NCBI GenBank assembly: GCA_965649115.1
Contig: CBFGJN010000001.1
Coordinates: forward strand, 568-64,567
Length of the DNA stretch: 64,000 nucleotides
Direction: 5' to 3'
DNA from: a candidate division WOR-3 bacterium
GTDB lineage: Bacteria; Hydrothermota; Hydrothermia; LBFQ01; DSFT01
Shown here one piece after another: positions 1 through 63,372 of this stretch; within the stretch, counting starts at the first letter, position 1; every line of letters begins with the position of its first letter. The notes under the pieces are model-generated. The model saw only the letters and a list, made by a program, of their open reading frames with translations. It was not told where the DNA came from and ran no database searches. The translations under genes and the position numbers were made by a program.

Positions 1-276
1 GTTTCGCCCCCATTAAAACCTCCTAAAACAAAGATTTCTAATAAATTTTCGCAAGTTATTAACAATCAATTACAAAGCTTCGCTTTATAAATTCCCATAT
101 TTAGGCTATGGGTGTCAAAGCCCCCCCCAATAATTCATCACACAAAATCAATAACCTTAAATTAACACTAATAATAAGCCTACAACTTATAAACACCCCA
201 ACTTTTACCTTTGGAGGATTTTCCACCATTAACACTCAATAAAATCAAGTCTTCAAAATTCATTATTGGACAAAGC
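1..276 (+). repeat. MITE-like structured interspersed repeat copy, cut by the window edge. Variant subfamily with the CCTCCTAAAACAAAGATTTCTAATAAATTTTC interior.
   Basis: Ends with the family 3' terminus ATTATTGGACAAAGCA at 262-276. The interior shares TTCGGCTATGGG and CAAAGCCCCCCC boxes with other copies, for example 18484-18560. Confidence 0.6.
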
Positions 277-286
277 AATTATCAAT

Positions 287-448
287 TACTTGATGCTGTA
301 TTTAGTAATCCTAAAAGTATTTATTTTATTATGTTCTCCAATCAGTCCTGAATTTAAGCCTTCGGCTTACAAATCTTCGCTCCCCGTTAGAACCTCCTAA
401 AATCAATGGTTTCATTGACAATTGCTTAACATTATTTACTAAACAAAG
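287..448 (+). repeat. Degenerate copy of the same repeat family
   Basis: Contains the TATTTATTTTATTAT, AAGCCTTCGGCTT hairpin, AAAATCAATGGTTTCATTGA and AACAAAGCA boxes in family order. Confidence 0.55.
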
Positions 449-451
449 CAA

Positions 452-2537: not shown

Positions 2538-2554
2538 TTTGAAAATTTTAAAGG
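2538..2554 (-). promoter_or_regulatory. Palindromic promoter-like motif CTTTAAAATTTTCAAA upstream of acpP
   Basis: An instance of the recurrent 16-bp palindrome, about 30 nt upstream of the acpP start. Confidence 0.5.
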
Positions 2555-2572
2555 ATAGTTGATTAAAGATTT

Positions 2573-2777
2573 GCTGTGTCCAATAATTCTAAAACTATTT
2601 ATTTTATTATATTTTTCCCACCCACCCTATATTTAAGCCTTCGGCTTATAAATACCCATATTTCGGCTATGGGGGGCGAAGCCCCCCTAATAATCCCCCC
2701 GATAAATCAATAGTTTCATTAAAACTTTAATAAGTTATTGATATTCAAGGACTTAACAATAATTATTGGACAAAGCA
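2573..2777 (+). repeat. Full-length MITE-like repeat unit (205 bp) with terminal inverted repeats
   Basis: Starts GCTGTGTCCAATAATTCT and ends AATTATTGGACAAAGCA. It is flanked by perfect 10-bp direct repeats TTAAAGATTT at 2563-2572 and 2778-2787. The interior carries the CCCACCCACCC, AAGCCTTCGGCTT, GGGGGGCGAAGCCCCCC and TTGATATTCAAGG boxes. Confidence 0.8.
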
Positions 2778-2787
2778 TTAAAGATTT

Positions 2788-2935
2788 GCCTTGTCTAGTA
2801 ATTCTGAAAATATATTCATTTCTTTATTTTACCCACCCACCTATCCTGAAAATAAAGGTGGAGCCTTATAAATACCCAATTTTTTGCCTTTGGAGGGCAG
2901 AGTTCCCCTTAAATTCCCCCTGAAAATTTATGCTT
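2788..2935 (+). repeat. Degenerate tandem second copy of the repeat
   Basis: GCCTTGTCTAGTAATTCTGAAAA start, then CCCACCCACC and GGAGCCTTATAAATACCC boxes. The 3' end is missing. Confidence 0.6.
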
Positions 2936-2964
2936 TATAATTTTCAACTAACGGGAGGTGGAAC

Positions 2965-3252
2965 ATGTGGTTAATAATTATAAGTCAAATAAATCCCTTT
3001 ACAATACAAAGGGATATAAATAGAATGAGTGTTGAAATATATGATACATCCTGGACAAATCATCCTGAAAAAATCCAATCACTTATGGAATATCTCAAAA
3101 ATGCTCTTAGTAATAATCTCGTTTATATATCCTATGACAATTTCAAAACAGCTATATATATGAAATTCAGAAATTGGACTGAAAATGATTCCTTAACTAT
3201 TGAAAAAATTTTAATAGAAAAGGGGGTAAATGGCTATGTTGTTCGTCATTGA
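2965..3252 (+). CDS. Hypothetical small protein
   Basis: ORF preceded by a GGGAGGTGG RBS. No recognisable motif. Confidence 0.35.
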   Translation: MWLIIISQINPFTIQRDINRMSVEIYDTSWTNHPEKIQSLMEYLKNALSNNLVYISYDNFKTAIYMKFRNWTENDSLTIEKILIEKGVNGYVVRH

Positions 3253-4828
3253 GCTTCAAATCTGGGCAGGTTTAAAAACTTATGGTGGTTCTAATTGGGA
3301 TCAATTGTGGGGTGTTGATTTTAATGCACCTGGCAATAATATCGTTGCGAACTTATTCTCTATGACATATAAAATTGATGCTTCTACTGGTGCTGATTTT
3401 GTTGTTATCGTCTCTACACAATCTGGAACTCCTGTTTGGGAAAGAATTGTAGGAAGGTCAAATATGAATGAATGGTCTTATAAAATTGCTTATGATAATG
3501 CTGGAAATCCAATTATAGGAGGAGCAAGTTGTGTTCCAAATGGTGGTCCTTCAAATTGTCAATTATCTACGAGTGATAGGGCGTTTGCTATTAAACTTAA
3601 TGGTTCAAGTGGTGCTTTCATATCTGCAAGAGATTTAGCTTCAAGCTGGGGAAGTTCTGATTGGATAAGGATAATGTCAATTAACGCTACAAGTGATGGT
3701 GGATTTGTAGTAGCAGGAGATATATATTACGATTCTTGGGCTGGCGATATTGATGGCTTTGTTGCTAAGTTTGATGCAAGCATGAACTTACAATGGAGGA
3801 GAATTCTTGGAACGACTGGTGCTGAATGGCTAACTACTGCTTTTCAAACAACAGATGGTAATATTGTTGTTGTTGGAACACCATTTAATGAGATTTTTAT
3901 AGCAAAACTAAATGTTTCTAATGGTAATATTATATGGCAAAGAAGGTATCCAAGAACCTATTATGATGATGGGTCTGGAAAGTACTTTACTTGGGCTAAA
4001 CCTTCTTCTGATGGAGGGATTATTATTGCAGATGAGATAAGTGGTGGCACTAATAGAGATGTCCTTTTTGCAAAGTTAAATGGTAGTGGTAATGTTGTTT
4101 GTGCAAGAAGGATAGGTGGTCCTGGTCATGATGTTGGAATTGATGTTGTAGAAGGAGCAAATTATTATTACTTAGCAGGATTTTGGAATGGTGGTGATTT
4201 ATTCTATGCAAAGTTTGATAAAACGAATTGTAATTTAGTAGGTAATGTCAGATATGTTCTATCATCTGGTGATGAATCTGCAAGGGCTATTGATATAAGG
4301 CCTTCCTCTGGAATTCCTTATGTTGCAGGTTATACAAATAGAGCGGGATGGACTGCTGGAAATTATGATGGATTATTAGCAGCAGATAGTGGAACACAAG
4401 ATACTTGTTATTGGAGAAGTTTAACACCAACGACGAATGTTTCTGTTTCATTTAGTAATAGTGGCTCTTGGAGTGATTATGGGAATACGGGAATAAATGT
4501 TTCAAGTGTTACTTATACAACTGTTTCAGTTAATACTAATAAAACTATTGCTTGTGGTTTATTAACACCTGTTTCTAATAATGAAAAATATGAGGATTGT
4601 TATATTTCAATAGCAAAAGATGGTTCATTTTTAACGATAAGGTCAAAGGACAAGCAGGATATAAGGTTAGTAATTTATAGCTCAGATGGTAAAGTGATTT
4701 ATAAGAATGAGTTTAGAAATGTTGAAGGTGTTTTAAATGAGAAAATTAAATTGAATAGTGGAATTTATATCGTTAAAGTTAATTATAAAAAAGGAGAGAT
4801 AAAAAATAAGTTTATAGTTAGGGATTAA
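3230..4828 (+). CDS. SBBP beta-propeller-repeat secreted protein with a T9SS C-terminal sorting domain
   Basis: Repeated DGG(F/I)VVAG and GNIVVVG blocks typical of PF06739-like beta-propeller repeats. The C-terminal approximately 80 aa (…SGIYIVKVNYKKGEIKNKFIV) match the Por secretion tail. The likely start is the second ATG at 3236 (MLFVIELQIW), 8 nt after an AAGGGGG RBS. Confidence 0.7.
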   Translation: MAMLFVIELQIWAGLKTYGGSNWDQLWGVDFNAPGNNIVANLFSMTYKIDASTGADFVVIVSTQSGTPVWERIVGRSNMNEWSYKIAYDNAGNPIIGGASCVPNGGPSNCQLSTSDRAFAIKLNGSSGAFISARDLASSWGSSDWIRIMSINATSDGGFVVAGDIYYDSWAGDIDGFVAKFDASMNLQWRRILGTTGAEWLTTAFQTTDGNIVVVGTPFNEIFIAKLNVSNGNIIWQRRYPRTYYDDGSGKYFTWAKPSSDGGIIIADEISGGTNRDVLFAKLNGSGNVVCARRIGGPGHDVGIDVVEGANYYYLAGFWNGGDLFYAKFDKTNCNLVGNVRYVLSSGDESARAIDIRPSSGIPYVAGYTNRAGWTAGNYDGLLAADSGTQDTCYWRSLTPTTNVSVSFSNSGSWSDYGNTGINVSSVTYTTVSVNTNKTIACGLLTPVSNNEKYEDCYISIAKDGSFLTIRSKDKQDIRLVIYSSDGKVIYKNEFRNVEGVLNEKIKLNSGIYIVKVNYKKGEIKNKFIVRD

Positions 4829-8152: not shown

Positions 8153-8162
8153 TGAATTAGAT

Positions 8163-8227
8163 GCTGTGCCCAAATAATTCTGAAAATCGGCACTTTTAAA
8201 ATACTCATTTTTTAATTATTTATCTTG
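8163..8227 (+). repeat. Fragment (5' end) of the repeat family
   Basis: GCTGTGCCCAAATAATTCTGAAAAT start box only. Confidence 0.5.
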
Positions 8228-9427: not shown

Positions 9428-10400
9428 AATCGCCTGTCCCGTACTTATCTATAAAAATAAACCTAAGATTTAAGCTTTCATAGTACCATATTTGATATGG
9501 TCTATCGTAAAGATTTAGTTCGCTTTTCTCTATATAATCAGGAGGTCCGTACCTTAAATAAACTAATCCCATAGCATTTATTTTGTTATTTTTAGTATAA
9601 TTTTTTATAACATAATGGTATCTTTGTAAAAATAATTCTTTCTCTTCGTTTAAATTTGTATTTGGAGTTGGGTCCTTATCTTTCCAAAAACTTTCCCACG
9701 CTTTCTTTAAGTCATTGTTGTTCTTTTTAAGATATTTACTAAATTCTCCTGAGTAAAGGTAGTTAAGAGCAAAGATAAGGTTTTTAAGTTCATCGGAAGT
9801 TAGGTTAAATAGTCCAAGCTTTTGAAATTCAAATGTTCTTGAAATTTTAAATTTTTTATATTTAAATTCTAATTTGCCTTCATATCTATCAAGTTTCAGG
9901 TTTTTAATTTCAAGAGGAATTTCTACTTCATTTTCACCATCTCTCAAATAAAATTTGTAGTTCTTCTTCGTTTTACTTTTTAAACTTTCAAATTTCATTT
10001 CAATATTTATAGTATCGTTAATTTTTGAATAGATTGGGACTTTTAATACTAAAAAACTATCATTTTCTTCATATTTATTTTTATTAGTTATAGGCTTTCC
10101 AAGAATAAAATAATCATTGCTTTGTGGTTTTAAGTTAAATGAAGTGTCATAAAGTGTAGCATCTGTTTTTTGGTTTTTAACTAAAAAATTAACTTTATAG
10201 CTTTCATTATATTTTAGGTTAATTTTTAAATTAAGAGAACTATCAAATTCAACAATTTCAGATTTAAAAATTTTTTTGTTTTCAAAAACATCATAAAGAG
10301 CTCTATAATTTCCTTTTTCATTTAAAACAAAATTAATAACTAATAAGTAGTTTTCTTTTTGAGGAATTTCTATGACTTGAATAAAATTAATAAGCCACAC
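9387..10400 (-). CDS. GWxTD domain-containing protein (paralog of 8228-9427)
   Basis: Same C-terminal block: FWKDKDP … GLVYLRYGPPDYI … YQIWYY … YGTGDYELAP. Confidence 0.7.
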   Translation of the reverse strand: MWLINFIQVIEIPQKENYLLVINFVLNEKGNYRALYDVFENKKIFKSEIVEFDSSLNLKINLKYNESYKVNFLVKNQKTDATLYDTSFNLKPQSNDYFILGKPITNKNKYEENDSFLVLKVPIYSKINDTINIEMKFESLKSKTKKNYKFYLRDGENEVEIPLEIKNLKLDRYEGKLEFKYKKFKISRTFEFQKLGLFNLTSDELKNLIFALNYLYSGEFSKYLKKNNNDLKKAWESFWKDKDPTPNTNLNEEKELFLQRYHYVIKNYTKNNKINAMGLVYLRYGPPDYIEKSELNLYDRPYQIWYYESLNLRFIFIDKYGTGDYELAPSSWTDYIR

Positions 10401-11293: not shown

Positions 11294-11372
11294 TGCTTTG
11301 TCCAATAAGAGGCATAAGAATGGTGATTTGTAAGCCGAAGGCTTGAATACAGGGTGAGTGGGAGAAATAAGA
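11294..11372 (-). repeat. Partial repeat copy in reverse orientation
   Basis: TGCTTTGTCCAATAAGA … AAGCCGAAGGCTT … AGGGTGAGTGGG, the reverse complements of the family boxes. Confidence 0.6.
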
Positions 11373-11433
11373 AATAATCTATTTGTCTAGTAAATTAAGG
11401 AAGGGTGAATGATTAAGCCTTTCTAAAAAATAA

Positions 11434-11612
11434 TGCTTTGTCCAGTAAATAATGTTAAGTAATTGACAATCAATAACTTATAAAAATCTACTTGAAACTA
11501 TTGATTTTATTGGGAGGAATTAAGGGGGCGAAGTTATAAGCGGAAGGCTTAATTTCAGTGGGGCTAGGAAAACAAAGAAAAATAAATACTTTCAGAATTT
11601 TCAGACACACCA
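11434..11612 (-). repeat. Repeat copy in reverse orientation
   Basis: TGCTTTGTCCAGTAAATAATG … TCAATAACTTATAAAA … GGGGGCGAAG … AAGCGGAAGGCTT … TTTCAGAATTTTCAGACACACCA. Confidence 0.7.
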
Positions 11613-11680
11613 GATAGTAAGGAAAGTTATGCTTTAAAATTTTCAAAGTTAGCTATGCTAACTAAAAAGGAGGTAAGGGT

Positions 11681-12694: not shown

Positions 12695-12880
12695 TGCCTT
12701 CCTATACCGAAAAAGTGTTAAGTTGTTGATTATTAATAATTTATAAATTTTTAAGAAAATCACTTATTTATTGGGGGGTTTTAAGGAGGACGAAGATTTT
12801 AAGCCATAGGCTAAGTTTTTATTTTTGTAAATCAAAACATTTGCCTCCATAAGTTATTGATAATCAGAAATTTATAAAAC
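12695..12880. repeat. Degenerate repeat-family remnant(s)
   Basis: GGGGGGTTTTAAGGAGGACGAAG, AAGCCATAGGCTAAG and TTATTGATAATCAG boxes. Confidence 0.45.
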
Positions 12881-12917: not shown

Positions 12918-14297
12918 ATGATTTTACTAACCTTTCATTTCATAAATGGTTATGGCGATAATGTAGATAACTACGCTTATTCTATAAGTATAACATCAGC
13001 TAATGAGATTATTGTTGTTGGTAAAGATGGTGGTGGTATGATAACGAAAATGGATTTAAATGGAAATATAAAATGGGCAAAGAGAGTAGGAGGACTATAT
13101 ACTATAAACGATATTGTAGAAACATTAGATGGTAAATATATTGTAGTTGGACAAACGGATGCAGGGAATATTTTTATATCTAAAATTGATACGAATGGAA
13201 TAGAAATTTGGAAAAAATCAATATATAATGGTGGGCTTGCTTCTGGTTATAAGATAGTAAAACTAGGAGATGGAAATTATTTAATTATTGATTATTTTAG
13301 GGGTATTGCAGTAATAGATGAGAGTGGAAATGTAATAAAAACTAGGAAAGAAAATACTTATTCCAATACGATATTTTACACTGGTTTGGCAAGAATTGAG
13401 GGTAGTTACTTAATAGCAGGCAATATCTCTTCACAAGGAATGGCTATTGTTCATACTGACTTTTCAATTGATTATTTTACAAAAGCAGATAATCCTAATG
13501 CTTCTATTTATCCTTACTTTATTTTTCAAGATGATGATAGTTCGTGCATTATTACTGGCTCTATTAACTCACAAGGCTTTATAATAAGACTTGATAAAAA
13601 TATAAATCCATTTCAATTAAAGTGGGCTAAAATTTATAATGGAACGAATAACATAAAATTTATTTCAAAAACTTCTGATGGAAATTATATTGCTATTGGA
13701 AACTATAAACCAAATAATGATTCTACTCAAATTGTCATATTTAAAACAGATACACTTGGAAATGTTATTTTCTCTAAAATTTTTAAGAGTCTTCATAATA
13801 AGTTCATCACATCAGCTATTTATAAAAATGGCTATGTCTATGTAATTTCAAATTTTAAGAATGTTAATAATAATGTCGATTTTTTGGTTATGAAAATAGA
13901 TGAGAACCTATCAGGAGATTGTAATTTCCAAAATCATAATTTAACATATAGTGATTTTCAGCTTAACAGGCAAGCTTTAACTCATTCTTACAATATATCA
14001 AATTCAATAAGTACTCCATCAACATCAATAAATGATTTGAATTATAATAGCTATAATTTTTGTACTACTCATAATCTTGAAAGTTGTCATTATAATATAT
14101 CAATCTCAATAAGTGGATACAATTTGAAAATTTATTCTCCATACAGAAATGAAATGTTTTATATTTACGATGTTTTAGGTAATCTTATAAAAAGAGGATA
14201 TTTAAAAGAAAATAATTTAATTAGTTTTAGTAAAGCGGGAATTTACATTTTAAAAGTTAAAGACAGAACTTATAAACTTTTCATAGGAAGGAGGTGA
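12918..14297 (+). CDS. SBBP beta-propeller-repeat protein with a T9SS C-terminal sorting domain
   Basis: Repeats of the DG(K/N)YI(V/A)(V/I)G type. C-terminus …AGIYILKVKDRTYKLFIGRR. N-terminus MILLTFHF, with no classical signal peptide. Confidence 0.7.
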   Translation: MILLTFHFINGYGDNVDNYAYSISITSANEIIVVGKDGGGMITKMDLNGNIKWAKRVGGLYTINDIVETLDGKYIVVGQTDAGNIFISKIDTNGIEIWKKSIYNGGLASGYKIVKLGDGNYLIIDYFRGIAVIDESGNVIKTRKENTYSNTIFYTGLARIEGSYLIAGNISSQGMAIVHTDFSIDYFTKADNPNASIYPYFIFQDDDSSCIITGSINSQGFIIRLDKNINPFQLKWAKIYNGTNNIKFISKTSDGNYIAIGNYKPNNDSTQIVIFKTDTLGNVIFSKIFKSLHNKFITSAIYKNGYVYVISNFKNVNNNVDFLVMKIDENLSGDCNFQNHNLTYSDFQLNRQALTHSYNISNSISTPSTSINDLNYNSYNFCTTHNLESCHYNISISISGYNLKIYSPYRNEMFYIYDVLGNLIKRGYLKENNLISFSKAGIYILKVKDRTYKLFIGRR

Positions 14298-14404: not shown

Positions 14405-15520
14405 ATGATGCCCCTTATAATAACCACCATAACTCAAAACAACCCTGGAATGTGGGATGAATACATAAGAACCTACGAGAGGACAATAATAGAGAACAAA
14501 GGACAACTGAAAGACAGAGAAATAATCCTATACTCAAAAATAGACAAAAACCTAAACATATACCTAAAAGAGGACGGACTATACTTTGTAATATACTCAA
14601 ACGAAAAATATAACATAGTAAAGTACAATCTTATGTCATCAAGAATAAAAAAAGAGAACATAGTATATGAAGAAGAACTACCTGGATACAGAAATTACTA
14701 TTTATCAAATAGCCAAGGGGTGCTTTTTGTAAAGAGTTATAAGAAAGCCATAATAAAGGACATATATAACAACATAGATTGGGTATTAAAATTTGACGAA
14801 TATGGCAAATTTCATCACGAATTTATAGTAAAGAAAGGGGGGAGAGTTGAAGACATAAAGATAAGGATTGAAAATGGAAAAATCAGAATAGATGATAACA
14901 GAAAAAACATAATAATAACTACTGAACTTGGAGAGATAAAAGATGGAAACTTAATAGCATATCAAGAAGGCAAGGAAATTGAAGTAAAATTAAATTTGAG
15001 TAATAATAATGAAATAACTTATGAAGTTTCAAATTATGACAAGAACAAGGATTTAACAATTGACCCAAATACACTAATATGGTCTACTTACTTTGGAGGA
15101 AGTAGTGATGATTTTTCTTATTCCATTACAACAGATGCTAATGGTAATGTATATATAACGGGATACACTGCTTCAACAGACTTTCCATTAGCAAATCCAG
15201 GAGGAGGCGCTTATTTTGATAATACTCAAAATGGTTCTTACGATGCTTTCATTTCAAAATTTACTGGTTCAACTTCCATAAATGAAAAATATGAATATAC
15301 CTATATTAAAGATGGAATATATTTAAATCTACAAAAGACAGACAAGCCCATTAAAGTTATAATTTATAGCATAGATGGAAAGTTAATAAGAGAATATAAC
15401 TATTTAAAATCAGATGGGAAATTATTTATTAGAACCAAAGAATTAAAAAATGGCATTTATATTATAAAGGTTTATATTGATAGTAGAGAAGTTCTAAGTT
15501 TAAAAGCAATTAAAAATTAA
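14405..15520 (+). CDS. SBBP-repeat protein with an N-terminal DUF-type domain and a T9SS C-terminal domain
   Basis: Canonical SBBP block LIWSTYFGGSSDDFSYSITTDANGNVYITGYTASTDFP…YDAFISKF. C-terminus NGIYIIKVYIDSREVLSLKAIKN. AAGGAGGTG RBS. Confidence 0.75.
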   Translation: MMPLIITTITQNNPGMWDEYIRTYERTIIENKGQLKDREIILYSKIDKNLNIYLKEDGLYFVIYSNEKYNIVKYNLMSSRIKKENIVYEEELPGYRNYYLSNSQGVLFVKSYKKAIIKDIYNNIDWVLKFDEYGKFHHEFIVKKGGRVEDIKIRIENGKIRIDDNRKNIIITTELGEIKDGNLIAYQEGKEIEVKLNLSNNNEITYEVSNYDKNKDLTIDPNTLIWSTYFGGSSDDFSYSITTDANGNVYITGYTASTDFPLANPGGGAYFDNTQNGSYDAFISKFTGSTSINEKYEYTYIKDGIYLNLQKTDKPIKVIIYSIDGKLIREYNYLKSDGKLFIRTKELKNGIYIIKVYIDSREVLSLKAIKN

Positions 15521-18469: not shown

Positions 18470-18483
18470 AGTAAAATTTTAAA

Positions 18484-18737
18484 GCTGTGTCTAATAATTC
18501 TGGAATTATTTATTTTCCTCCTAAAACAAGGATTTCTAATAAATTTTCATAAGTTAAAGCATAATTCTAAAAATATAATCATTCCTATTTAAGGCTTCAC
18601 AATTCATCAACCCTCCATTGTCTTGAAATGCTTGAAGTAATAGGGAATTAAAAAGGCTTAGAACCGAAGGCTCAATTCGTAGGGTGAGTGGTAAAAGTAT
18701 AGAAATAATTATACTCTCAGAATTTTTGGACACAGCA
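18484..18737. repeat. Repeat element with perfect inverted ends (head-to-head arrangement of family termini)
   Basis: Starts GCTGTGTCTAATAATTCTGG and ends CAGAATTTTTGGACACAGCA. The interior has AACCGAAGGCTC and AGGGTGAGTGG boxes in reverse orientation. Confidence 0.7.
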
Positions 18738-18757
18738 AAAACCATTTATTTTTTAGC

Positions 18758-18774
18758 TTTAAAATTTTCAAAGT
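18758..18774 (+). promoter_or_regulatory. Promoter-like palindrome CTTTAAAATTTTCAAAG upstream of serS
   Basis: Ends 4 nt before the serS ATG. No Shine-Dalgarno sequence. Confidence 0.5.
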
Positions 18775-24645: not shown

Positions 24646-24828
24646 TGCTTTGTCCAATAAATAATGTTAAATGCCTAATAATCAATAACTTATAAAATTT
24701 TTAAGGAAATTATTGAATTTTAGCCCCCCATAACCGAAAAATGGGTATTTTTAAGCCGAAGGCTTAATTTCAGGGTGGGTGGGAAAAATATAGAAAAATA
24801 AATAATTTCAGAATTATTAGACACAGCA
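24646..24828 (-). repeat. Repeat copy in reverse orientation
   Basis: TGCTTTGTCCAATAAATAATG … AATCAATAACTTATAAAA … GCCCCCCATAACCGAAAAATGGG … AAGCCGAAGGCTT … AGGGTGGGTGGG … CAGAATTATTAGACACAGCA. Confidence 0.8.
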
Positions 24829-27857: not shown

Positions 27858-27896
27858 AGTTTGAAAATTTTAAAGCTTTTTAGAGACTTTCAATTG

Positions 27897-28032
27897 CTGT
27901 GTCTAGCCTAAAAATAAGGCTTCGCCTTATAAATGCCCATTTTTCGGCTATGGGAGGGCTTAAATTCAATAATTTCATTAAAAATTTTACAAGTTCTTGA
28001 TCGTCAAGGACTTAACACTATTTATTGGACAA
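27897..28032 (+). repeat. Compact repeat copy. Its 3' end overlaps the C-terminal codons of ORF 27987-28556.
   Basis: GCTGTGTCTAGCC … AAGGCTTCGCCTT (hairpin with swapped stem) … TTTTCGGCTATGGGAGGG … TCAAGGACTTAACACTATTTATTGGACAA. Confidence 0.7.
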
Positions 28033-29647: not shown

Positions 29648-29682
29648 ATTTAAAATTTTAAAGGAAAAAATTTTATTTATCT

Positions 29683-29800
29683 GCTGTGTCTAGGAATTCT
29701 AAAATCATTTATTTTTCACCCTTTAAATAAAGCTTCGCCCTAATAAAATCAATAATCTCAAAAAAGTTTTTATAAGTTTGTGTCTAATAATTAATACCCC
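29683..29800 (+). repeat. Compact or degenerate repeat copy plus a fragment
   Basis: GCTGTGTCTAGGAATTCTAAAATCATTTATTTTTCACCC … AAAGCTTCGCCCT … AAAATCAATAATC, then GTTTGTGTCTAATAATTAATACCCCCC. Confidence 0.6.
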
Positions 29801-38138: not shown

Positions 38139-38190
38139 ATTGAAAATTTTAAAGGGTAAATAATTTACTTTTCAGCTAAATCGGTTTTTT

Positions 38191-38350
38191 ACCACTTACC
38201 TGCTTTGTTTAATAATTCTAAAATTATTTATTTTTCTTTATTTCCCCACCCACCCTAAAAATAAGCCTTCGGCTTATAAAAGCCCCTATTTTTTTTCAGG
38301 AGGCTTTGCCCCCTTATTAACCCCCATAAAATCAATAGGGACTTAAAATA
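38191..38350 (+). repeat. Repeat copy (3'-truncated)
   Basis: TGCTTTGTTTAATAATTCTAAAATTATTTATTTTT … CCCACCCACCCTAAAAATAAGCCTTCGGCTTATAAAAGCCCC … CCCCCATAAAATCAATAGGGACTTAAAA. Confidence 0.75.
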
Positions 38351-38351
38351 T

Positions 38352-47984: not shown

Positions 47985-48527
47985 AATAAGTTATTTTCGA
48001 GTGGGTGGGGAAAATAAAGTTGCTTTGTTCAATAAAAATTTTAAGAAAACTATTGATTTTAGCGGGTTTTTAAGGGGGGCAAAGCCCCCCATAACCGAAA
48101 TAGACACAGCAAATATATTTTGCTTTGTCCAGTAATTATTGTCAATCACTTGATAATCAATAACTTATAAAATTTTTAGGGAAATTATAGATTTCATTAG
48201 GGGGATTTTAGGGGGGCGAAGTCCCCCACAGCCTAAAAATGGGCATTTTAAAGCCGAAAGCTTTTATTTAGGGTGAGCGAGGAAAAATAGTAAAATAAAT
48301 AATTTTAGAATTATTAGACACAGCAAATATATTTAACTTTGTCTAGTAATTGGTGTTAAGTTATTGATAATCAATAATTTGTGAAAACTTAATAAAATTA
48401 TTGTCTTTATGGGGGTTTTAAGGGGGGCGAAGCCCCCCATAGCCGAAATATGGGTATTTTAAAGCCGAAGGCTTAATTTTAGGGTGGGTGGGAAAAATAA
48501 ATGGTTTTAGAATTACTAGACACAGCA
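47985..48527 (-). repeat. Array of three reverse-orientation repeat units plus a leading fragment, separated by a constant AATATATTT(T/A) spacer
   Basis: Units approximately 48011-48111, 48122-48325 and 48336-48527. Each starts (T)GCTTTGTYYARTAA and ends AGACACAGCA. The GGGGGGC(A/G)AAG(C/T)CCCCC hairpin is present in all. Confidence 0.8.
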
Positions 48528-48561
48528 AATATATTTATCAATTCTACTTTAAAATTTCATT

Positions 48562-51992: not shown

Positions 51993-52054
51993 AGTATGAA
52001 ATTTTAAACGAGGTAAAAGATGAAAAATTATTTTAATGAGACTTTTGATTTCAT

Positions 52055-52180
52055 GGGGGGATTGAAGGGGGTGGTAGCCCCCTACTGCTGAAAAATGTGT
52101 ATTTTAAAGGTTCCACCTTGGTGGATGGGTAAAATAAAGAAATAATCTATATTTTAGAATTACTAGACAAAGAAAATAAT
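52055..52180 (-). repeat. Degenerate repeat copy in reverse orientation
   Basis: GGGGGGATTGAAGGGGGTGGTAGCCCCC … GGTGGATGGG … TTTAGAATTACTAGACAAAG. Confidence 0.55.
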
Positions 52181-56226: not shown

Positions 56227-57138
56227 ATGATAATTGTTCATGGTGGTGCAGGTGAATGGAATGAAGAAAAATTTAAAATTGCTGAAAAAATTTTAATTAA
56301 AGCAGTAGAAGAAGCATTAGAAATTTTAAGAAAAGATGATGACCCTATAACTGCTTGTGAAACAGCTATTAAAATTCTTGAAGATGAACCTATCTTTAAT
56401 GCAGGAACGGGAAGTGTTTTGAATATATTTGGTGAGGTTGAAATGGATGCAAGCATTATGCGTGGAGATAATTTAAAAGCAGGGGCTGTTGCAGGTATTA
56501 AAAATATTAAAAATCCAATCAGTTTAGCAAGGAAAATTATGGAAGAAACTGAACATGTTTTAATAATTTCAGAAGGCGCTCAAAAACTTGCTAAAACCTT
56601 TGGATTTGAAGAATATAATCCTATTACAGATGAAAGTATTGAAAAGTACAAAAAGGCAAAAGAAAATTTTGATAAAATTAATAGTTTGAAACATATTAAA
56701 GAATTTATGGAAAAATATCCAAATTATTTCATTGGAACTGTTGGAGCAGTTGTTGTAAATAGTAAGGGAGTTATTGTAAGTGGTTCTTCAACAGGTGGGA
56801 CAATTTTAAAATTAAAGGGTAGAGTTGGAGATACACCCTTAATTGGTGCAGGAATATATGCTAATGATGTTTGTGGAGCAAGTGCAACAGGAATAGGAGA
56901 GGGCATAATTAGAGTAAATTTAAGTTCATTTGTTTGTTATTTAGTTAAATTTGGAGTTTCAGTTGAAAATGCTACAAAAAGTGCTATTGATTATTTAACT
57001 CAAAAAGTAAATTTGCCAGCAGGTATTATTGCTGTTGATAAATATGGAAATGTAGGATTTTATCATAATACAAAATATATGCCTGTTGCCTACTATAAAG
57101 ATGGTGAAATTCAAACAAAATTTAGTTGTTTTGTCTAG
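56227..57138 (+). CDS. Isoaspartyl peptidase / L-asparaginase (Ntn-hydrolase)
   Basis: Autoproteolytic GTVGAVVVN site (Thr nucleophile) and GAGI/GGT blocks. Confidence 0.85.
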   Translation: MIIVHGGAGEWNEEKFKIAEKILIKAVEEALEILRKDDDPITACETAIKILEDEPIFNAGTGSVLNIFGEVEMDASIMRGDNLKAGAVAGIKNIKNPISLARKIMEETEHVLIISEGAQKLAKTFGFEEYNPITDESIEKYKKAKENFDKINSLKHIKEFMEKYPNYFIGTVGAVVVNSKGVIVSGSSTGGTILKLKGRVGDTPLIGAGIYANDVCGASATGIGEGIIRVNLSSFVCYLVKFGVSVENATKSAIDYLTQKVNLPAGIIAVDKYGNVGFYHNTKYMPVAYYKDGEIQTKFSCFV

Positions 57139-57250
57139 TAATTCCAATTTCGGTTATGGGGGGCAAAGCCCTCTTAACCCCCGATAAATCAACTATTTTA
57201 AGGACTTAACAATAATTACTGAACAAATAGTTCGGCTGTGGGGCTGAGCA
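57139..57250 (+). repeat. Partial repeat copy (3' portion)
   Basis: TTCGGTTATGGGGGGCAAAGCCC … CCCCCGATAAATCAAC … AAGGACTTAACAATAATTACTGAACAAA. Confidence 0.6.
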
Positions 57251-58660: not shown

Positions 58661-58699
58661 AATATATAAAATTTTAAAGTTTAATGTTGATTTTTTTGT

Positions 58700-58903
58700 G
58701 CCTTGTCCAATAATTCTGGAAATATAATTATTTCTATATTTTCCCACCCGCCCTAAAAATAAGCCTTCGGCTTTAAAAAACCCCATCTTTTGCTATGGGG
58801 GGCTCTGCCCCCCATAAAGTGCCCCCATTATTTCAAGTATTTCAATTAATACTTAATAAGTAGTTGATTATCAATCACTTAGCAATAATTATTGGACAAA
58901 GCA
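58700..58903 (+). repeat. Full-length repeat unit
   Basis: GCCTTGTCCAATAATTCTGG … CCCACCCGCCC … AAGCCTTCGGCTT … GGGGGGCTCTGCCCCCC … TTGATTATCAATCA … AATTATTGGACAAAGCA. Preceded by ATTTTTTTGT. Confidence 0.8.
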
Positions 58904-58913
58904 AGAGTTAGTT

Positions 58914-59116
58914 GCTGTGTCTAAGAATTCTGAAAGTATTTATTTTTCTTATTTTGCCCACCCGCCCTGAAATAAAGGCTACGCCTTTAAAATGCCCATT
59001 TTTCGGCTGTGGGGGGCTCCGCCCCCCATTAGATCCCCCATAAAATCAATAGTTTTATTGAAATTTTCGTAAGTCATTGATAATCAAGGATTTAACAATA
59101 ATTATTGGACAAAGCA
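58914..59116 (+). repeat. Full-length repeat unit (tandem to the previous one)
   Basis: GCTGTGTCTAAGAATTCTGAAA … CCCACCCGCCC … AAAGGCTACGCCTTT (stem-swapped hairpin) … GGGGGGCTCCGCCCCCC … AATTATTGGACAAAGCA. Followed by ATTTTTTTGT. Confidence 0.8.
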
Positions 59117-59126
59117 ATTTTTTTGT

Positions 59127-59200
59127 GCTGTGTCCAGTAATTCTGAAATATAAAATAATTCTTTTTCCCCCGAAAAATCAAGAGTTTTAATTAACAATAT
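59127..59200 (+). repeat. 5' fragment of a third tandem repeat unit
   Basis: GCTGTGTCCAGTAATTCTGAAATATAAAATAATTC. Confidence 0.6.
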
Positions 59201-59207
59201 TTTTCAT

Positions 59208-59225
59208 GCTTTAAAATTTTCAAAC
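59208..59225 (+). promoter_or_regulatory. Promoter-like palindrome GCTTTAAAATTTTCAAAC immediately upstream of the riboswitch
   Basis: The riboswitch P1 stem begins 1-2 nt after the motif. Confidence 0.55.
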
Positions 59226-59226
59226 A

Positions 59227-59366
59227 TGCAGGCGACAGGGAAGAGGGGTGAAATTCCCCCGCTGTCCCAGCAGCCGTGATGGGCATAAAAATTGCCCCTG
59301 AAAGCCACTGCCGAAAGGTGGGAAGGCTCAGGGGTTTTTAGCCCTAAGCCGGAAGACCTGCCTGCA
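59227..59366 (+). promoter_or_regulatory. Cobalamin (AdoCbl) riboswitch
   Basis: P1 TGCAGGC…GCCTGCA. Conserved AGGGAAGAGGGGTGAAATTCCCC, GCCACTG and GGGAAGGC elements. B12 box AAGCCGGAAGACCTGCC. A downstream hairpin CCCTTCCTG…CAGGAAGGGG can sequester the GGAGG RBS. Confidence 0.85.
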
Positions 59367-60841
59367 TGCTTCAAAACCCTTCCTGCTGGGGTTCAGGAAG
59401 GGGGGAGGTTGTAAGCTTGCTTGATACTATAATTGTTATAGATACTTTTAGATTTTTTTATAAAATTGATAGTTTAAGTAAATTTTCAGATTTTAGGGAA
59501 GTTTTTAGACAGAATAGTTCTATTATTTTTAGAGAACTTTCTAATAGGATTGTAGTTTCAATAAGAGGACTTGAAGATAAGCAAAATGAAGTTTATTTAA
59601 ATGGTGTAAAATTGAATAATCCAATTTGGGGATTTTTTTATGCTAATGCTTTACCTTTAAATTTAATAAGTTCTTCAAACGTTATTCTGAATAATTATAG
59701 AGTAAATTTTGAAATTTCAGGGGAGAAAGAAATTGGATTTTTTATTGGCTCATATAATAAATTTTCAATGTACTATAAAAATGGAACTTTTGGAATTGAA
59801 AGAACATATAATGAAAATAATTACAGATATTGGGATAGTTTTAATAGGGAATATCAAAGAAAAAATAATTTTGAAGATAAAATTGGAGGATTTTTAAATT
59901 TTAAGAATTTAAGCATCATTTTTTATGATGGAATTTTTGGAATGCCATTAAGAGGATATGGTAATGAAGGAAGCGATTTTGAAATTTATAAAGGTTTAAT
60001 TTTAAGTTATAAAAATCATTATTTTAATTATCAATTCTATCGCTATAATTATGAAAAACCCTATGAAAGCTATATATTGGATCTCAATTATTTCCAAGTA
60101 GTTTTTTCAAATATGGAAGAATTTCACAAAAGATTTATTTTCAAAATGCCTTTCAAATATCTTGGTTATTTTTCAATAGTTTTAGATGAAAACAATTTCA
60201 AATTTGACTATTTAATTTCAAAAGCTTTTAGGTATCATAATTTTATTTTTGAATTAGCACTAAAAAGAAGAATTCCAAATTTTTCTGAATTATATTATAA
60301 AAGTAATTATGCAATTGGAAATCAAAGCTTAACCCCTGAAAATTTTTACACATTACAAATGAAATATAAACTTTTTGACATTTTTATAACTTATATTCAA
60401 AATCCTATTTTATGGCTACCTGATGAAAATTATTGGAAAGCTCAAAACTTAAATTATTTATTTTTATATGGTTTTGAAATGGATTATAATTATAGATTTT
60501 TAGAGTTTTCAGTTTCTTATATCAAAAATAAGCTTTCAAATAACATGATATTGCCATATAGACCAAATTTAACAATTTCAGCCTCTATAAATTACAATTT
60601 TAGCTCTTTCTTGAAAGATAAATTAGTTTTTATATATTATTCAAAAAGACCAAGCTATTATTATCCTTCAAGTTTTTATTTAGAACCAATTTTAATAATA
60701 GATTATTATAAATTCTTTGAGTTTAAAAAGTTTTTCTTCTACATTTACTTTAAAAATCTTTTAAATAAATCTTATGAGTTTATAAAAGGCTATCCTATGG
60801 AAAGCTTTTCTTTAAACATAAAAGGAGGTTTAAAGTGGTAG
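59366..60841 (+). CDS. TonB-dependent outer-membrane receptor, BtuB-like (start uncertain; no recognisable signal peptide)
   Basis: The TonB-box-like DTIIVIDTFRF aligns with BtuB DTLVVTANRF. Plug motif VSIRGLEDKQNEVYLNGVKLNN. C-terminal aromatic (…GGLKW). A candidate TTG start at 59417 lies 8 nt after GGAGG. Confidence 0.6.
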   Translation: MLQNPSCWGSGRGEVVSLLDTIIVIDTFRFFYKIDSLSKFSDFREVFRQNSSIIFRELSNRIVVSIRGLEDKQNEVYLNGVKLNNPIWGFFYANALPLNLISSSNVILNNYRVNFEISGEKEIGFFIGSYNKFSMYYKNGTFGIERTYNENNYRYWDSFNREYQRKNNFEDKIGGFLNFKNLSIIFYDGIFGMPLRGYGNEGSDFEIYKGLILSYKNHYFNYQFYRYNYEKPYESYILDLNYFQVVFSNMEEFHKRFIFKMPFKYLGYFSIVLDENNFKFDYLISKAFRYHNFIFELALKRRIPNFSELYYKSNYAIGNQSLTPENFYTLQMKYKLFDIFITYIQNPILWLPDENYWKAQNLNYLFLYGFEMDYNYRFLEFSVSYIKNKLSNNMILPYRPNLTISASINYNFSSFLKDKLVFIYYSKRPSYYYPSSFYLEPILIIDYYKFFEFKKFFFYIYFKNLLNKSYEFIKGYPMESFSLNIKGGLKW

Positions 60842-61920
60842 CTTGGATAGATACAATATACTTATTTTCACACGGAGATGGTCAATGGTATGGTCAAAAT
60901 AACTATCCTTATATTGTTTATAATTCTCCACCTAATTCTGCTACACCTACTAATCCTTCACTTGATGTTTTATCGCTTGGAAAATATGGATTTATTATTT
61001 TTGGATTTAAAAATAAATTTACAAATTCGGAGATAAGAGTTTTTGAAAATGCTTTTATAACATCTACAAATCCTGACACGCAAGTTTTTGCTGAACCTGG
61101 ACTTCTTTACTATTCTAAAAATGGAAAATTATTTTTTATTTATCCTTTTGATACAAGCTCAAATAACATATACTATTGGAAAGGTCTTGCTGGAATAAAA
61201 CCAACGAATTATGGAGCGAATACAAATGATCCGAATGTTTGGATGGGTGATAAATTTCTATTTAATGATACTGTAAGATTTGTTTTAATAGCGGATTGGA
61301 TAGAGAAGTGTAAAAGTCAATTGTGTTCAGGTTTTGATTTAGATGCAACTGCTTGTTTAAATTGTCAAAACGATAATTATAATTATCAATTGCCTGAAAT
61401 TATTTATGCAGTAGGAATTGGTGGAGATACAAATGATTGGGAAAATAAATTAAAATTTGTAGATGGCAATTGTTTAAATATAGGTGAAAATGGGATTGTT
61501 ATTTTTAGAAATTTAAATATCATTAACAAAAATGGAATTGATTTTAAAATTAAAACAAATAAACCTGTCAGAATATATGGTGGAAATGGAAAACTGAATT
61601 TTATAAATGCTTTTTATAGTGATTCAAGAGTGGATAGTATTGGTGAAATAGATTCACTAAAATCAAGACAAATTTTAAGTCCATTTATTGTTTCTGATAC
61701 TATTAATATAATTGCTATAAGAAGCAAAGAAAATGCTTGTATTGATGGAATTGAGATTTATAACGCAAAATTAAATGAAGAAATAAAAAATTATGATATT
61801 GTAGAAATTTATAATTTAAGTGGTAAAAGGGTTTTTTATGGAAAGTATATGGATTTTAAATCAAAGGGTGTTTTTATAATAAGAAAAGGGAAACTTATCA
61901 AAAAGGAGGTAAAAAAATGA
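60835..61920 (+). CDS. Hypothetical cell-surface protein with a T9SS-like C-terminal domain, co-transcribed with the BtuB-like gene
   Basis: Overlaps the btuB-like stop. C-terminus IVEIYNLSGKRVFYGKYMDFKSKGVFIIRKGKLIKK. Confidence 0.4.
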   Translation: MVAWIDTIYLFSHGDGQWYGQNNYPYIVYNSPPNSATPTNPSLDVLSLGKYGFIIFGFKNKFTNSEIRVFENAFITSTNPDTQVFAEPGLLYYSKNGKLFFIYPFDTSSNNIYYWKGLAGIKPTNYGANTNDPNVWMGDKFLFNDTVRFVLIADWIEKCKSQLCSGFDLDATACLNCQNDNYNYQLPEIIYAVGIGGDTNDWENKLKFVDGNCLNIGENGIVIFRNLNIINKNGIDFKIKTNKPVRIYGGNGKLNFINAFYSDSRVDSIGEIDSLKSRQILSPFIVSDTINIIAIRSKENACIDGIEIYNAKLNEEIKNYDIVEIYNLSGKRVFYGKYMDFKSKGVFIIRKGKLIKKEVKK

Positions 61921-63074
61921 TAAACCTTATAGTTAGCTATGGAGCGTTTGTTATTGGTCAAAGTACAAAACAAGTTTATATTATATATCAAAATCAGATT
62001 GTTGATAGCTTTCCAACTGGAACAAGAGCTGTTCCAAATTATCTAATATCTTTTGGTGATACTTTTCTTATTGTGAATTCTGGTGGATTTTCAGATAATG
62101 GCTCAATTGCTTTTATAAAGAATAAAAACATCATATATGAACTTTTACTTCCAAGCTTTATGAATCCTATGGAAGCTGTTAAGGTAAACAACAAAATATA
62201 TTTTACTGATTTTGGAGATACTTTTAATGATAAAATTTACATTATTCAAAATTACCAAATTATTGATTCAATAAAGGTTTATAAAAGACCAAGTTCAATA
62301 GCTTATTGTTTTGGCTATATCTTTTCTACTTCAACGGGGATAAATAGTGATTATAGTTATGACGATTCGTCATTTGTTCATAAAATAAATCCTTCAAACA
62401 ATAGTGTTTTGAACTTAAAGCTTCGCTCAAATGCTAATGGTGTAAAATGTGATAATAATTATGTTTATGTAATGACAAGTGGAACTTATGATAATAATTT
62501 CAATCCTTTAAACAATTCAACAATTTATAAAATAAATCCACTGACATTTCAAATTATTGATTCTACAAAAAATTTAGAAAATGTTTCAAGTTTTGCTGTT
62601 GGTAATAATTATATTCTTGTTGGTGTTTGGAAATTTGATAGTGTAAAAGTTTATAAAATAAATAAAAATAATTTTAGTTTAATTGATAGTTTCAAATTAA
62701 ATTATGGTGGCCTTGGAGGGATTGATTTTGATGGTCAATTTTTTAAATTTTCACTTGGTGGATTTACAGGTGGTCCAAATGTAATTTATGTTTTAAAAGA
62801 AAGTGATAATACTTCATATTATTTTATTCATCATAATAGTGATGTTGGAAGTGGATTTATTAAAGGATTTATTAGTTTATCTAATTACGAGGTCGTTAAA
62901 AATAAAGTTGGAAACGGAATTATTCATTTCTCAAAAATTCAAGAAATCTATGTTTATGATATTTCAGGAAGAAAAATCCTTCATTTAAGAGATAATAAGT
63001 TAAATTTAAGAAGTTTAAATAATGGCGTTTATATTATTAAAACTGATGAAGGATATTTGAAAATTTTAAAATAA
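61917..63074 (+). CDS. Beta-propeller-like surface protein with a T9SS C-terminal domain (possible BtuG-like B12-binding protein)
   Basis: Overlapping ATGA start. Repeated (Y/F)x(T/V)D-type blade motifs (IYFTDFGD, YVYVMTSG). C-terminus NGVYIIKTDEGYLKILK. Confidence 0.4.
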   Translation: MINLIVSYGAFVIGQSTKQVYIIYQNQIVDSFPTGTRAVPNYLISFGDTFLIVNSGGFSDNGSIAFIKNKNIIYELLLPSFMNPMEAVKVNNKIYFTDFGDTFNDKIYIIQNYQIIDSIKVYKRPSSIAYCFGYIFSTSTGINSDYSYDDSSFVHKINPSNNSVLNLKLRSNANGVKCDNNYVYVMTSGTYDNNFNPLNNSTIYKINPLTFQIIDSTKNLENVSSFAVGNNYILVGVWKFDSVKVYKINKNNFSLIDSFKLNYGGLGGIDFDGQFFKFSLGGFTGGPNVIYVLKESDNTSYYFIHHNSDVGSGFIKGFISLSNYEVVKNKVGNGIIHFSKIQEIYVYDISGRKILHLRDNKLNLRSLNNGVYIIKTDEGYLKILK

Positions 63075-63089
63075 ATTGAGATAAACTTT

Positions 63090-63372
63090 ATTGGGGGTAG
63101 GGTTTTAAGGGAGTCCCCCCATAGCCTAAAAATGGACATTTAAAAGATGGATTTTTTAAAGCTGTGGGCTTAATTTTTAGGATAGGTAGGCAAAATATAG
63201 AAATACAATAACTTATAAATTTTTAAGGAAATTGTTAATTTATTGGGGGAAATTAAGGGGGGCGAAGCCCCCCACTGCCGAAAAATGGGTATTTTTAAGC
63301 CGAAGGCTTAATTATAGGGTGGGTGGGCAAAATATAGAAATGAATATATTTTTAGAATTATTGGACACAGCA
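63090..63372 (-). repeat. Two reverse-orientation repeat units
   Basis: GGGAGTCCCCCCATAGCCTAAAAATGG … and GGGGGGCGAAGCCCCCCACTGCCGAAAAATGGGTATTTTTAAGCCGAAGGCTTAATTATAGGGTGGGTGGGC … TTTTTAGAATTATTGGACACAGCA. Confidence 0.75.

Follow-up and report, generated by a model that had tools for sequence, protein, structure and literature searches.

A probable trans-mobilized family of miniature inverted-repeat transposable elements beside promoters of a candidate division WOR-3 bacterium

The window, a 64,000-nucleotide stretch of DNA from a candidate division WOR-3 bacterium, carries at positions 2572–2777, next to the gene acpP, a 206-bp element that is very probably a copy from a family of MITEs (miniature inverted-repeat transposable elements) that is mobilized in trans, lies beside promoters, and builds arrays. 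The element moves, and its insertion duplicates 9 bp. Its copies are short (<∼500 bp), noncoding, and dispersed, they possess terminal inverted repeats (TIRs) and locus-specific target-site duplications (TSDs) of fixed length, and empty sites are found in relatives. We therefore consider it a new MITE family but a known kind of element, for which all testable features of a MITE were observed except the identity of a parent insertion sequence (IS). The locus is organized as follows.

2539–2553, minus strand: promoter-like motif CTTTAAAATTTTCAA of acpP, located 18 nt from the left end of the element and pointing away from it
2563–2571, no strand: left 9-bp TSD TTAAAGATT
2572–2777, plus strand: full-length MITE copy A, 206 bp (nhmmer, model positions 1–206, E = 3.5e-61)
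2572–2588, plus strand: left TIR TGCTGTGTCCAATAATT, complementary to 2761–2777 at 16/17 positions
2761–2777, plus strand: right TIR AATTATTGGACAAAGCA, reverse complement TGCTTTGTCCAATAATT
2778–2786, no strand: right 9-bp TSD TTAAAGATT, doubling as the 9-nt spacer to the next copy
2787–2928, plus strand: copy C, older, degenerate, and 3′-truncated (model positions 1–136), 68% identical to copy A
2933–2947, plus strand: promoter-like motif CTTTATAATTTTCAA of the open reading frame (ORF) 2965–3252

A first reading of the sequence only had placed the element at 2573–2777, with a 16-bp TIR and a perfect 10-bp duplication. The repeats it described are present (2573–2588 reads GCTGTGTCCAATAATT, and 2761–2777 reads AATTATTGGACAAAGCA), but the T of 2572 pairs with the final A of 2777, so that the element begins one base earlier, ends in TG…CA, and has a 17-bp TIR. 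Likewise, the identical decamers that it had reported for copy A (TTAAAGATTT at 2563–2572 and 2778–2787) and for a tandem pair at 58700–59116 (ATTTTTTTGT at 58690–58699 and 59117–59126) are real. However, the tenth base in both arrays is the first T of the TIR of the next copy (2787 and 59126), and it is mismatched where no copy follows to the right, as at 294–450 of the window (ATTACTTGA, then T versus C) and at 9988–10189 of the related contig L003 (TTATAAAAA, then T versus A). The true duplication is therefore 9 bp, namely TTAAAGATT for copy A and ATTTTTTTG for the pair. Copy A is overlapped only by spurious ORFs of 45–61 amino acids.

The TIR pattern, with three or fewer mismatches allowed, matches the window 21 times, whereas 0.72 matches are expected from shuffled sequences (largest shuffle value 4). 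We built a family profile from seven full-length copies and searched the window and related contigs with nhmmer. The window contains 23 copies or fragments that sum to 3,041 nt, which corresponds to 4.75% of its bases and 43% of its intergenic bases; only 15 nt of MITE sequence lie inside ORFs. Copy lengths range from 176 to 206 bp, with full-length copies of ∼205 bp and a deletion subfamily of 176–183 bp. The TIRs are conserved across 22 aligned copies, and family copies are 65–87% identical to each other. The GC content of the window is 27%.

Related contigs (L001, L002, and so on) were collected via FabF, an asparaginase, and a type IX secretion system-tail protein, and they hold many further copies. 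When the flanking 9-mers of 19 full-length copies from the window and these contigs were compared, eight proved to be perfect direct repeats (9/9) and one matched at 8/9, a level reached by 0.6% of mispaired flank controls. The duplicated 9-mers are TTAAAGATT, ATTACTTGA, AAATATATT (twice), TTATAAAAA, CAACCACTT, CTTTGTAAT, ACTAATTCT, and TCTAATAAA/TATAATAAA, and the composite pair 58699–59116 contributes one more perfect 9-mer, ATTTTTTTG. Because the 9-mers vary from locus to locus, the flanking repeats are not part of the unit itself.

Near-identical relatives show filled and empty alleles at four loci, in line with the transposition that the sequence-only reading had proposed. At positions 12345–12548 of L007, the filled allele reads CAACCACTT-(204 bp)-CAACCACTT, and L008, L009, and L012 lack the element and contain the 9-mer a single time (CAACTACCT or TACCCACCT). 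Similarly, L003 is filled at 3135–2933 (TCTAATAAA-(203 bp)-TATAATAAA), and L002 has TCTAATAAA a single time. The third and fourth loci are a site filled in L006 and empty in L004, and positions 3864–4067 of L007, which are empty in L008, L010, and L012. It is these differences between close relatives that demonstrate movement of the element. Neither of the two outcomes that the sequence-only reading had named as refuting transposition (flanking decamers that belong to the unit, or a lack of empty and filled sites in related genomes) was encountered.

For copy A itself, no relative among those compared (L002, L003, L143, and L148–L150) keeps both flanks. The gene upstream of acpP is a different one in L002, L003, and L143, and L148–L150 differ on the other side, so that comparison at this locus is one-sided and the case for copy A rests on its TSD and on the behavior of the family. 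On the acpP side, homology to L002 and L003 ends a few bases past the acpP promoter motif CTTTAAAATTTTCAA, which both keep upstream of acpP without an element there. On the other side, just 14–15 nt separate two divergent promoter motifs in the MITE-free relatives L148–L150, and the window retains their TGAAAATTTATG-CTTTATAATTTTCAAC directly after the truncated copy C, with the native TGAAAATTTATG and the promoter motif in the same arrangement. The 2572–2928 array thus fills a gap that is nearly empty in these relatives, and the change of neighboring genes suggests a rearrangement at the array.

An unexpected property of the family is its nonrandom position relative to promoters. Exact copies of CTTTAAAATTTTCAA occur in the window at 2539–2553 (minus strand), 11632–11646, 18757–18771, 27861–27875 (minus strand), 38140–38154 (minus strand), and 59209–59223, each a short distance upstream of either a gene start or the cobalamin riboswitch. 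At 41 promoter-like sites from the window and the related loci, the start codon (ATG) usually follows the motif by 2–10 nt, and no conserved −35-like element is found. This suggests that CTTTAAAATTTTCAA is the core of a one-block promoter of largely leaderless genes in this WOR-3 lineage. A σ70-type −35 box supplied by the end of the element was considered and rejected, because the distance between the TTGGACA of the TIR and the −10-like hexamer would be too great, at ∼28 nt.

Of the promoter-like motifs surveyed in the window and its relatives, about a third carry such an element. Left ends have an outward-directed motif within 20 nt in 24 of 37 cases (21 at 18–20 nt and 3 at 11 nt), whereas right ends have a motif within 20 nt in only 3 of 29 cases, all of them in the gaps of divergent promoters (Fisher p = 1e-5). 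The remaining left ends without a close motif belong mostly to inner copies of arrays. In reconstructed targets, an unconserved 10-nt spacer separates the motif from the 9-bp target.

Two accounts of this spacing have to be weighed. It is quite possible, if tentative, that the transpososome, guided by the motif or by a protein bound to it, reads host promoters and inserts in one orientation into a 9-bp target 10 bp from the core motif, which would place the left end at about −35, rebuild the target each time, and let dated head-to-tail stacks of copies accumulate at promoters. In such a streamlined, largely leaderless thermophile genome, copies may have been co-opted as modules for termination or insulation, and their internal promoter-like motif as a promoter module. 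The alternative, possible but more doubtful, is that the MITE transposes anywhere and that, in this very compact genome, only those insertions survive that spare the upstream gene and a core promoter of ∼35 bp, with orientation reflecting polar effects, for example of hairpins that resemble terminators and occur on a single strand. Only the minus strand of the element indeed has a hairpin with a T-run behind it. The MITE-free gaps are also tiny, with 14–29 nt between divergent motifs in L148, L150, L008, and L004 and a UbiA–acpP gap of 29 nt in L143. The insertion in L006 would occupy the sole position in the 29-nt gap of L004 that leaves 19 nt on both sides (its left end lies beyond the contig end, so that this spacing is a prediction), and copies truncated by deletion likewise end at a constant, small distance from the promoter motif that follows.

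Survival of random insertions does not readily account for the shape of the distribution, which has a sharp peak instead of trailing upward from a minimum: among the 26 left ends that have a motif no more than 70 nt away, 21 lie at 18–20 nt. The copy at 11198–11400 of L003 sits exactly 19 nt from its motif, although the gap in the empty relative L002 is 163 bp. Furthermore, an identical 9-mer is reused within each of at least six arrays, and no copy is clearly nested inside another, despite the 43% share of copies in the tolerant DNA. Copies themselves tolerate insertions, since an IS1-family element sits inside one of them. Because of the sharp spacing peak, the 163-bp gap, the reuse of 9-mers, and the orientation rule, we favor targeting over selection for spacing, with limited confidence.

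The sequence-only reading had proposed an IS4/IS5/Tn5-like transposase acting in trans. The ends and the 9-bp duplication agree with this proposal and narrow the likely family to the IS903 group. The MITE end TGCTTTGTCCAATAATTC shares 14 of its 18 positions with the inverted repeat (IR) of IS903B, GGCTTTGTTGAATAAATC (p about 1e-5 from shuffles); a 44-mer of the IS903 end matched elements annotated as IS903B at 100%. On plasmid Rts1, IS903B reads GGCTTTGTTGAATAAATC…GATTTATTCAACAAAGCC within the 9-bp repeat GACACAACG. The left TIR matches the ISAba12 end at 10 of 16 positions, and the ends of IS10, IS50, and IS256 match the MITE end at chance level only. An IS5-family, IS903-group enzyme acting in trans is thus the best candidate transposase, as judged from end similarity and duplication length, the two grounds for the assignment.

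Three further searches looked for the enzyme. With the IS903B transposase as query, tblastn gave no match in the window or in 23 related loci (L002–L024). Pfam scans of the ORFs adjoining copies in related loci returned housekeeping genes only. Among TIR pairs 450–4000 bp apart, the sole candidate (L012, 16345–17744) turned out to consist of a partial copy and, after it, a large gene for a secreted protein.

An IS1-family transposase is an unlikely substitute for the IS903-group enzyme. Elements of that family likewise give 9-bp duplications, and one of them, at ∼4545–5330 of L003, with an InsA zinc ribbon, a DDE_Tnp_IS1 domain, and the 9-bp repeat TAAATAATG, has been recently active in the lineage, since it is absent from L002. 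Its IRs GGTAGTGGCAGAATTTGG and GGTAGTGGTTAATCATTG, however, agree with the MITE end at no more than 6/18 and 9/18 positions, which is chance level (p = 0.22 and 0.02 from shuffles), against 14/18 for IS903, and the terminal bases at the cleavage site are wholly different (GGTAGTG versus TGCTTTG in the MITE). This IS1-family element (IRs GGTAGTGG…) sits within a MITE copy and represents a second transposon family active in the lineage.

Several observations speak against a trans-mobilized, promoter-directed MITE served by an IS903-group enzyme. About half of the full-length copies show no duplication, two "empty" alleles of L002 are not clean but contain a filler of 13–38 nt, and in one filled allele (L007, 3855–3863) 9 unrelated nt, TAATTCCCT, replace the left repeat. 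The copies, only 65–87% identical, give no sign of a recent burst that started from one master copy. The transposase gene with matching ends that the sequence-only reading had anticipated was sought in the window and in ∼300 kb of related contigs, and none was found. The ends start with T and not with the G of IS903-group ends, and 4 of 18 positions differ, including 9–10. IS903 transposase reportedly acts preferentially in cis (Derbyshire et al. 1990, listed in PMC8944449), and mobilization in trans by a close relative would for this reason be inefficient. For IS903, a table in PMC2577343 lists a duplication of 9 bp and, as target motif, WTTYA-N9-TRAAW; this motif is not evident here, as the flanks of 10 reconstructed targets fit it poorly and nothing of the right half-site recurs except its initial T-R, mostly as the TG of a resident copy. 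A scan of species-representative genomes for TGCNTTGTCCAATAA gave mostly chance matches, and among the matches listed true copies occurred only in L077 (Candidatus Hydrothermia bacterium PSS.bin.3). Finally, the 19-nt spacing could stem from selection instead of targeting. We tentatively put the missing duplications and the unclean alleles down to deletions at a later time and recombination among copies. The fillers of L002 (∼13860–13900 and 14945–14960) are a 38-nt sequence with a GTCAG…CTGAC hairpin and a 13-nt palindrome, ATTTCGAAATTGG.

Copies in arrays are arranged head to tail, and their spacing is always 9 nt. The two larger arrays of the window comprise the following features.

48528–48536, minus strand: 9-mer AAATATATT (element orientation), repeated at 48326–48334 and 48112–48120
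48335–48527, minus strand: promoter-proximal copy of a three-copy head-to-tail array
48121–48325, minus strand: middle copy of the three-copy array
48033–48111, minus strand: promoter-distal, internally deleted copy of the three-copy array
58690–58698, no strand: left 9-bp duplication ATTTTTTTG of the tandem pair, starting 10 nt past the promoter-like motif at 58665–58679
58699–58903, plus strand: full-length copy, first of the pair
58904–58912, no strand: internal 9-nt spacer of the pair, AGAGTTAGT, unlike the outer repeats
58913–59116, plus strand: full-length copy, second of the pair
59117–59125, no strand: right 9-bp duplication ATTTTTTTG of the pair
59126–59195, plus strand: older, internally deleted copy, followed by the promoter motif at 59209–59223 and the cobalamin riboswitch at 59213–59379

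With X denoting the repeated 9-mer, the patterns are X-A-X-C at 2563–2928, X-A-X-B-X-C at 48033–48536 (X is AAATATATT), and X-[A-Y-B]-X-C at 58690–59195; the same pattern recurs in L012 (16157–16345), in L003, and in L150 (10940–11468). The promoter-distal copy is truncated or degenerate in the arrays of the window and at 16157–16345 of L012. In L150 (10940–11468), the spacers TAGAGTTTT, TAGAATTTT, and TAAAATTTT differ by one change per step away from the promoter. Neighbors in arrays are 68–76% identical and thus no closer to each other than unlinked copies (65–87%). Taken together, the arrays suggest repeated entry of unrelated copies into one promoter-side 9-mer. The pair 58699–59116 probably moved as a composite, because its inner spacer is foreign whereas its outer repeats match.

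It is very unlikely that repeats and arrays arose instead by tandem duplication or unequal crossing-over of a repeat with a 9–10-nt linker. Spacers within arrays are invariably 9 nt long and often identical, and such exchange between short repeats is expected to yield the patterns X-A-X-C and X-A-X-B-X-C, but adjacent copies resemble each other no more than unlinked ones do, even though their 9-mers are perfect. Moreover, solo copies at unrelated loci have perfect 9-mers of their own, and empty alleles contain the 9-mer exactly once.

The course of events under the MITE interpretation can be sketched as follows. A DDE transposase supplied in trans would bind TIRs of 17–22 bp (TGCTKTGTCYAATAATTCT…TTATTGGACAAAGCA), cleave at the TG/CA termini, and join the element to a target cut with a 9-bp stagger, the repair of which would yield the 9-bp direct repeat. 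The left end would usually land 10 nt plus the 9-bp target away from the host core motif CTTTAAAATTTTCAA, with the motif facing away. Because the promoter-side copy of the duplication preserves the spacing, the target would be rebuilt at each insertion, and arrays would form as a consequence: later copies could enter the same 9-mer and give rise to head-to-tail arrays with 9-nt spacers, in which the newest copy is next to the promoter. A tandem pair may then move as a composite, as proposed for 58699–59116. Deletions and recombination between copies would gradually wear down old copies and might have removed about half of the duplications.

The core of the element contains a C-rich block (CCCACCCACCC), a UUCG-type hairpin (AAGCC-TTCG-GGCTT), a G6/C6 hairpin with its loop in both polarities, and, ∼50 nt from the right end, an outward-directed promoter-like motif (CCTTAAAAATTTTATAAG). 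The subfamily of 176–183 nt, represented by 11434–11612 of the window, 350–528 and 7972–8154 of L002, 16157–16335 of L012, and 10940–11468 of L150, cannot form the G6/C6 hairpin because the G-run segment is missing. As this subfamily nevertheless duplicates targets and builds arrays, the hairpin is unnecessary for movement. A role of the element as terminator, insulator, or promoter is speculation.

Least probable of all is a nonmobile regulatory or structural repeat of the repetitive extragenic palindromic (REP) or bacterial interspersed mosaic element (BIME) type, or a small-RNA gene: the GC-rich hairpins AAGCC-TTCG-GGCTT and G6-loop-C6 are conserved in a genome of 27% GC, 4 of 22 copies show compensatory CG-to-GC changes in one pair of the UUCG-type hairpin, and the folding of either strand, largely through TIR pairing, lies well below that of shuffled controls (z = −4.1 and −5.5), but the consensus fold (RNAalifold) retains one 5-bp hairpin besides the TIR terminal stem of single-copy folds, Rfam at gathering thresholds reports one riboswitch and two tRNAs and nothing else in the window, the subfamily without the G-run still has perfect duplications and arrays, and REP elements lack TIRs, locus-specific duplications, and empty sites. 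Membership in the REP/BIME class itself (palindromic units of 20–40 nt without TIR or TSD, mobilized by REP-associated tyrosine transposases) was rejected for a unit of ∼205 bp with TIRs and TSDs.

IS903 is said to choose nonrandom targets with an orientation preference (Hu and Derbyshire 1998, cited in PMC2577343), and H-NS reportedly affects its targeting (Swingle et al. 2004, cited in PMC8944449). The MITE shares with IS903/IS903B the 9-bp duplication and the 18-bp IR at 14/18 positions. In contrast to the MITE, IS903 is autonomous, with a length of 1,057 bp and a transposase of its own; its end starts with G where the MITE has T, and its target motif is not evident here.

Membership among the Correia elements (CREE) of Neisseria was rejected, since the duplication here is 9 bp long and variable in sequence and the ends are unrelated. 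Correia elements are 100–155 bp long, have 26-bp TIRs and a TA dinucleotide duplication, and occupy ∼2% of the genome. We know of neither a fixed 19-nt spacing between end and promoter nor regenerated-target arrays for them. Like the family described here, they are abundant intergenic MITEs, often located immediately upstream of genes, that contain promoter sequences and whose TIRs fold on transcription (PMC10969869).

The closest described analogue is MITEAba12, with ISAba12 (IS5 family, IS903-type ends), of Acinetobacter and other Moraxellaceae (PMC6382973). Both families are noncoding, with imperfect TIRs of ∼16 bp that start xGCTTTGT (ends TGCTTTGTCC here and GGCTTTGTTG in ISAba12/MITEAba12), show 9-bp duplications (on ∼40% of MITEAba12 copies) at AT-rich targets, contain internal promoter-like sequences, and can belong to composite structures. 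MITEAba12 differs in being 113 bp long, highly conserved, and low in copy number, with up to ∼22 copies per genome and a co-resident parent IS with identical ends, whereas the family here is ∼205 bp long, is 65–87% identical, fills ∼43% of the intergenic DNA of the window, and is accompanied by no parent IS that we could find in the contigs searched. The promoter spacing and orientation and the arrays that reuse a 9-mer are seen here and do not appear in the passages of that paper on MITEAba12 (PMC6382973).

The FabF protein of the window is 100% identical to that of a candidate division WOR-3 metagenome-assembled genome. From assembly GCA_039803085.1, contig L001 is 99.99% identical to the window, and L147 is the same except for one run of N. 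The family is absent from the more distant relatives L014, L015, L145, and L146, and the sister lineage L143 and L144 (GCA_026416795.1 and GCA_025060695.1), likewise more distant, has no copy in 33 kb, so that its expansion seems limited to a narrow clade. In this sister lineage, FabF is 89% identical, the GC content is 30%, and gene spacing is much tighter. A scan of viral contigs gave one match, a chance match in a coding region of a contig with 39% GC. A population termed "Pyropristinus type 2 / Ca. Thermoproauctor," with ∼29% GC, is described from an 80 °C Yellowstone spring (PMC4791363). Keyword searches of that paper and of a recent WOR-3 survey gave no mention of transposons or repeats, and a literature search found no paper that links WOR-3 with MITEs.

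The family makes up nearly half of the noncoding DNA of the window, in a small WOR-3/"Pyropristinus" genome of 27% GC from a lineage of ∼80 °C springs. This MITE load explains contig breaks and differences in gene order among close relatives, and the MITE sites provide a ready marker for strain typing. If targeting is correct, the family would be a rare case of promoter-directed transposition in bacteria and would provide a mechanism for ordered MITE arrays; if selection is correct, the element would show where promoters of an uncultured phylum functionally end on their upstream side. The end-specific 19-nt promoter spacing and the self-renewing target are the features most worth following.

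The remaining copies and fragments in the window are listed below.

3–277, plus strand: cluster of MITE fragments, with a right TIR (261–277) at its end
294–450, plus strand: shortened copy with a perfect 9-bp duplication ATTACTTGA at 285–293 and 451–459
8162–8186, plus strand: solo left-TIR remnant of 25 nt
11295–11612, minus strand: copy of the 179-nt subfamily (11434–11612) and a fragment (11295–11380)
12712–12795, minus strand: fragment, model positions 106–191
18483–18737, no strand: pair of partial copies in head-to-head orientation; the left end of each faces one of two divergent genes
24646–24828, minus strand: copy with an internal deletion whose flanks, CTGAAATTA and GGTAATTTG, form no direct repeat; left end 19 nt from a motif
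27896–28032, plus strand: copy with an internal deletion; the motif at 27861–27875 lies 19 nt from its left end
29682–29800, plus strand: degenerate copy, left end 18 nt from a promoter motif
38201–38351, plus strand: 3′-truncated copy, motif 46 nt from the left end, an exception to the spacing
52030–52174, minus strand: 3′-truncated copy, left end 19 nt from a motif
57130–57231, plus strand: internally deleted copy between convergent genes
63060–63372, minus strand: truncated copy (63206–63372) and an adjoining fragment, left end 19 nt from a motif

The flanks of the copy at 24646–24828 are approximate inverted repeats (TTTCCTGAAATTA and the reverse complement TTCCAAATTACC) and not direct repeats. 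One orthologous promoter-upstream site contains the 25-nt remnant 8162–8186 in the window, a deleted copy of ∼70 nt in L149 (10938–11005), and the three-copy array in L150, which shows rapid gain and erosion at this site. The cobalamin riboswitch at 59213–59379, directly after a MITE array, scores 85.8 bits, and the ORFs 59366–60841 and 61917–63074 downstream of it have no Pfam match.

In L004 (2010–3494) and also in L006, a 1.48-kb AT-rich insert separates the asparaginase gene from a glycosyltransferase gene. It has no Rfam match, its sole ORF of at least 50 amino acids encodes 88, and a GC-rich hairpin is located at 3400–3490. At the same site, the window has a MITE fragment, and L007–L012 have 2 nt. 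The last codons and the TAG stop of the asparaginase gene of the window (57130–57138) come from the left TIR of the MITE; in L013 the 3′ end of the gene carries a solo TIR-like sequence, and in L007–L012 it has a different, shorter ending.

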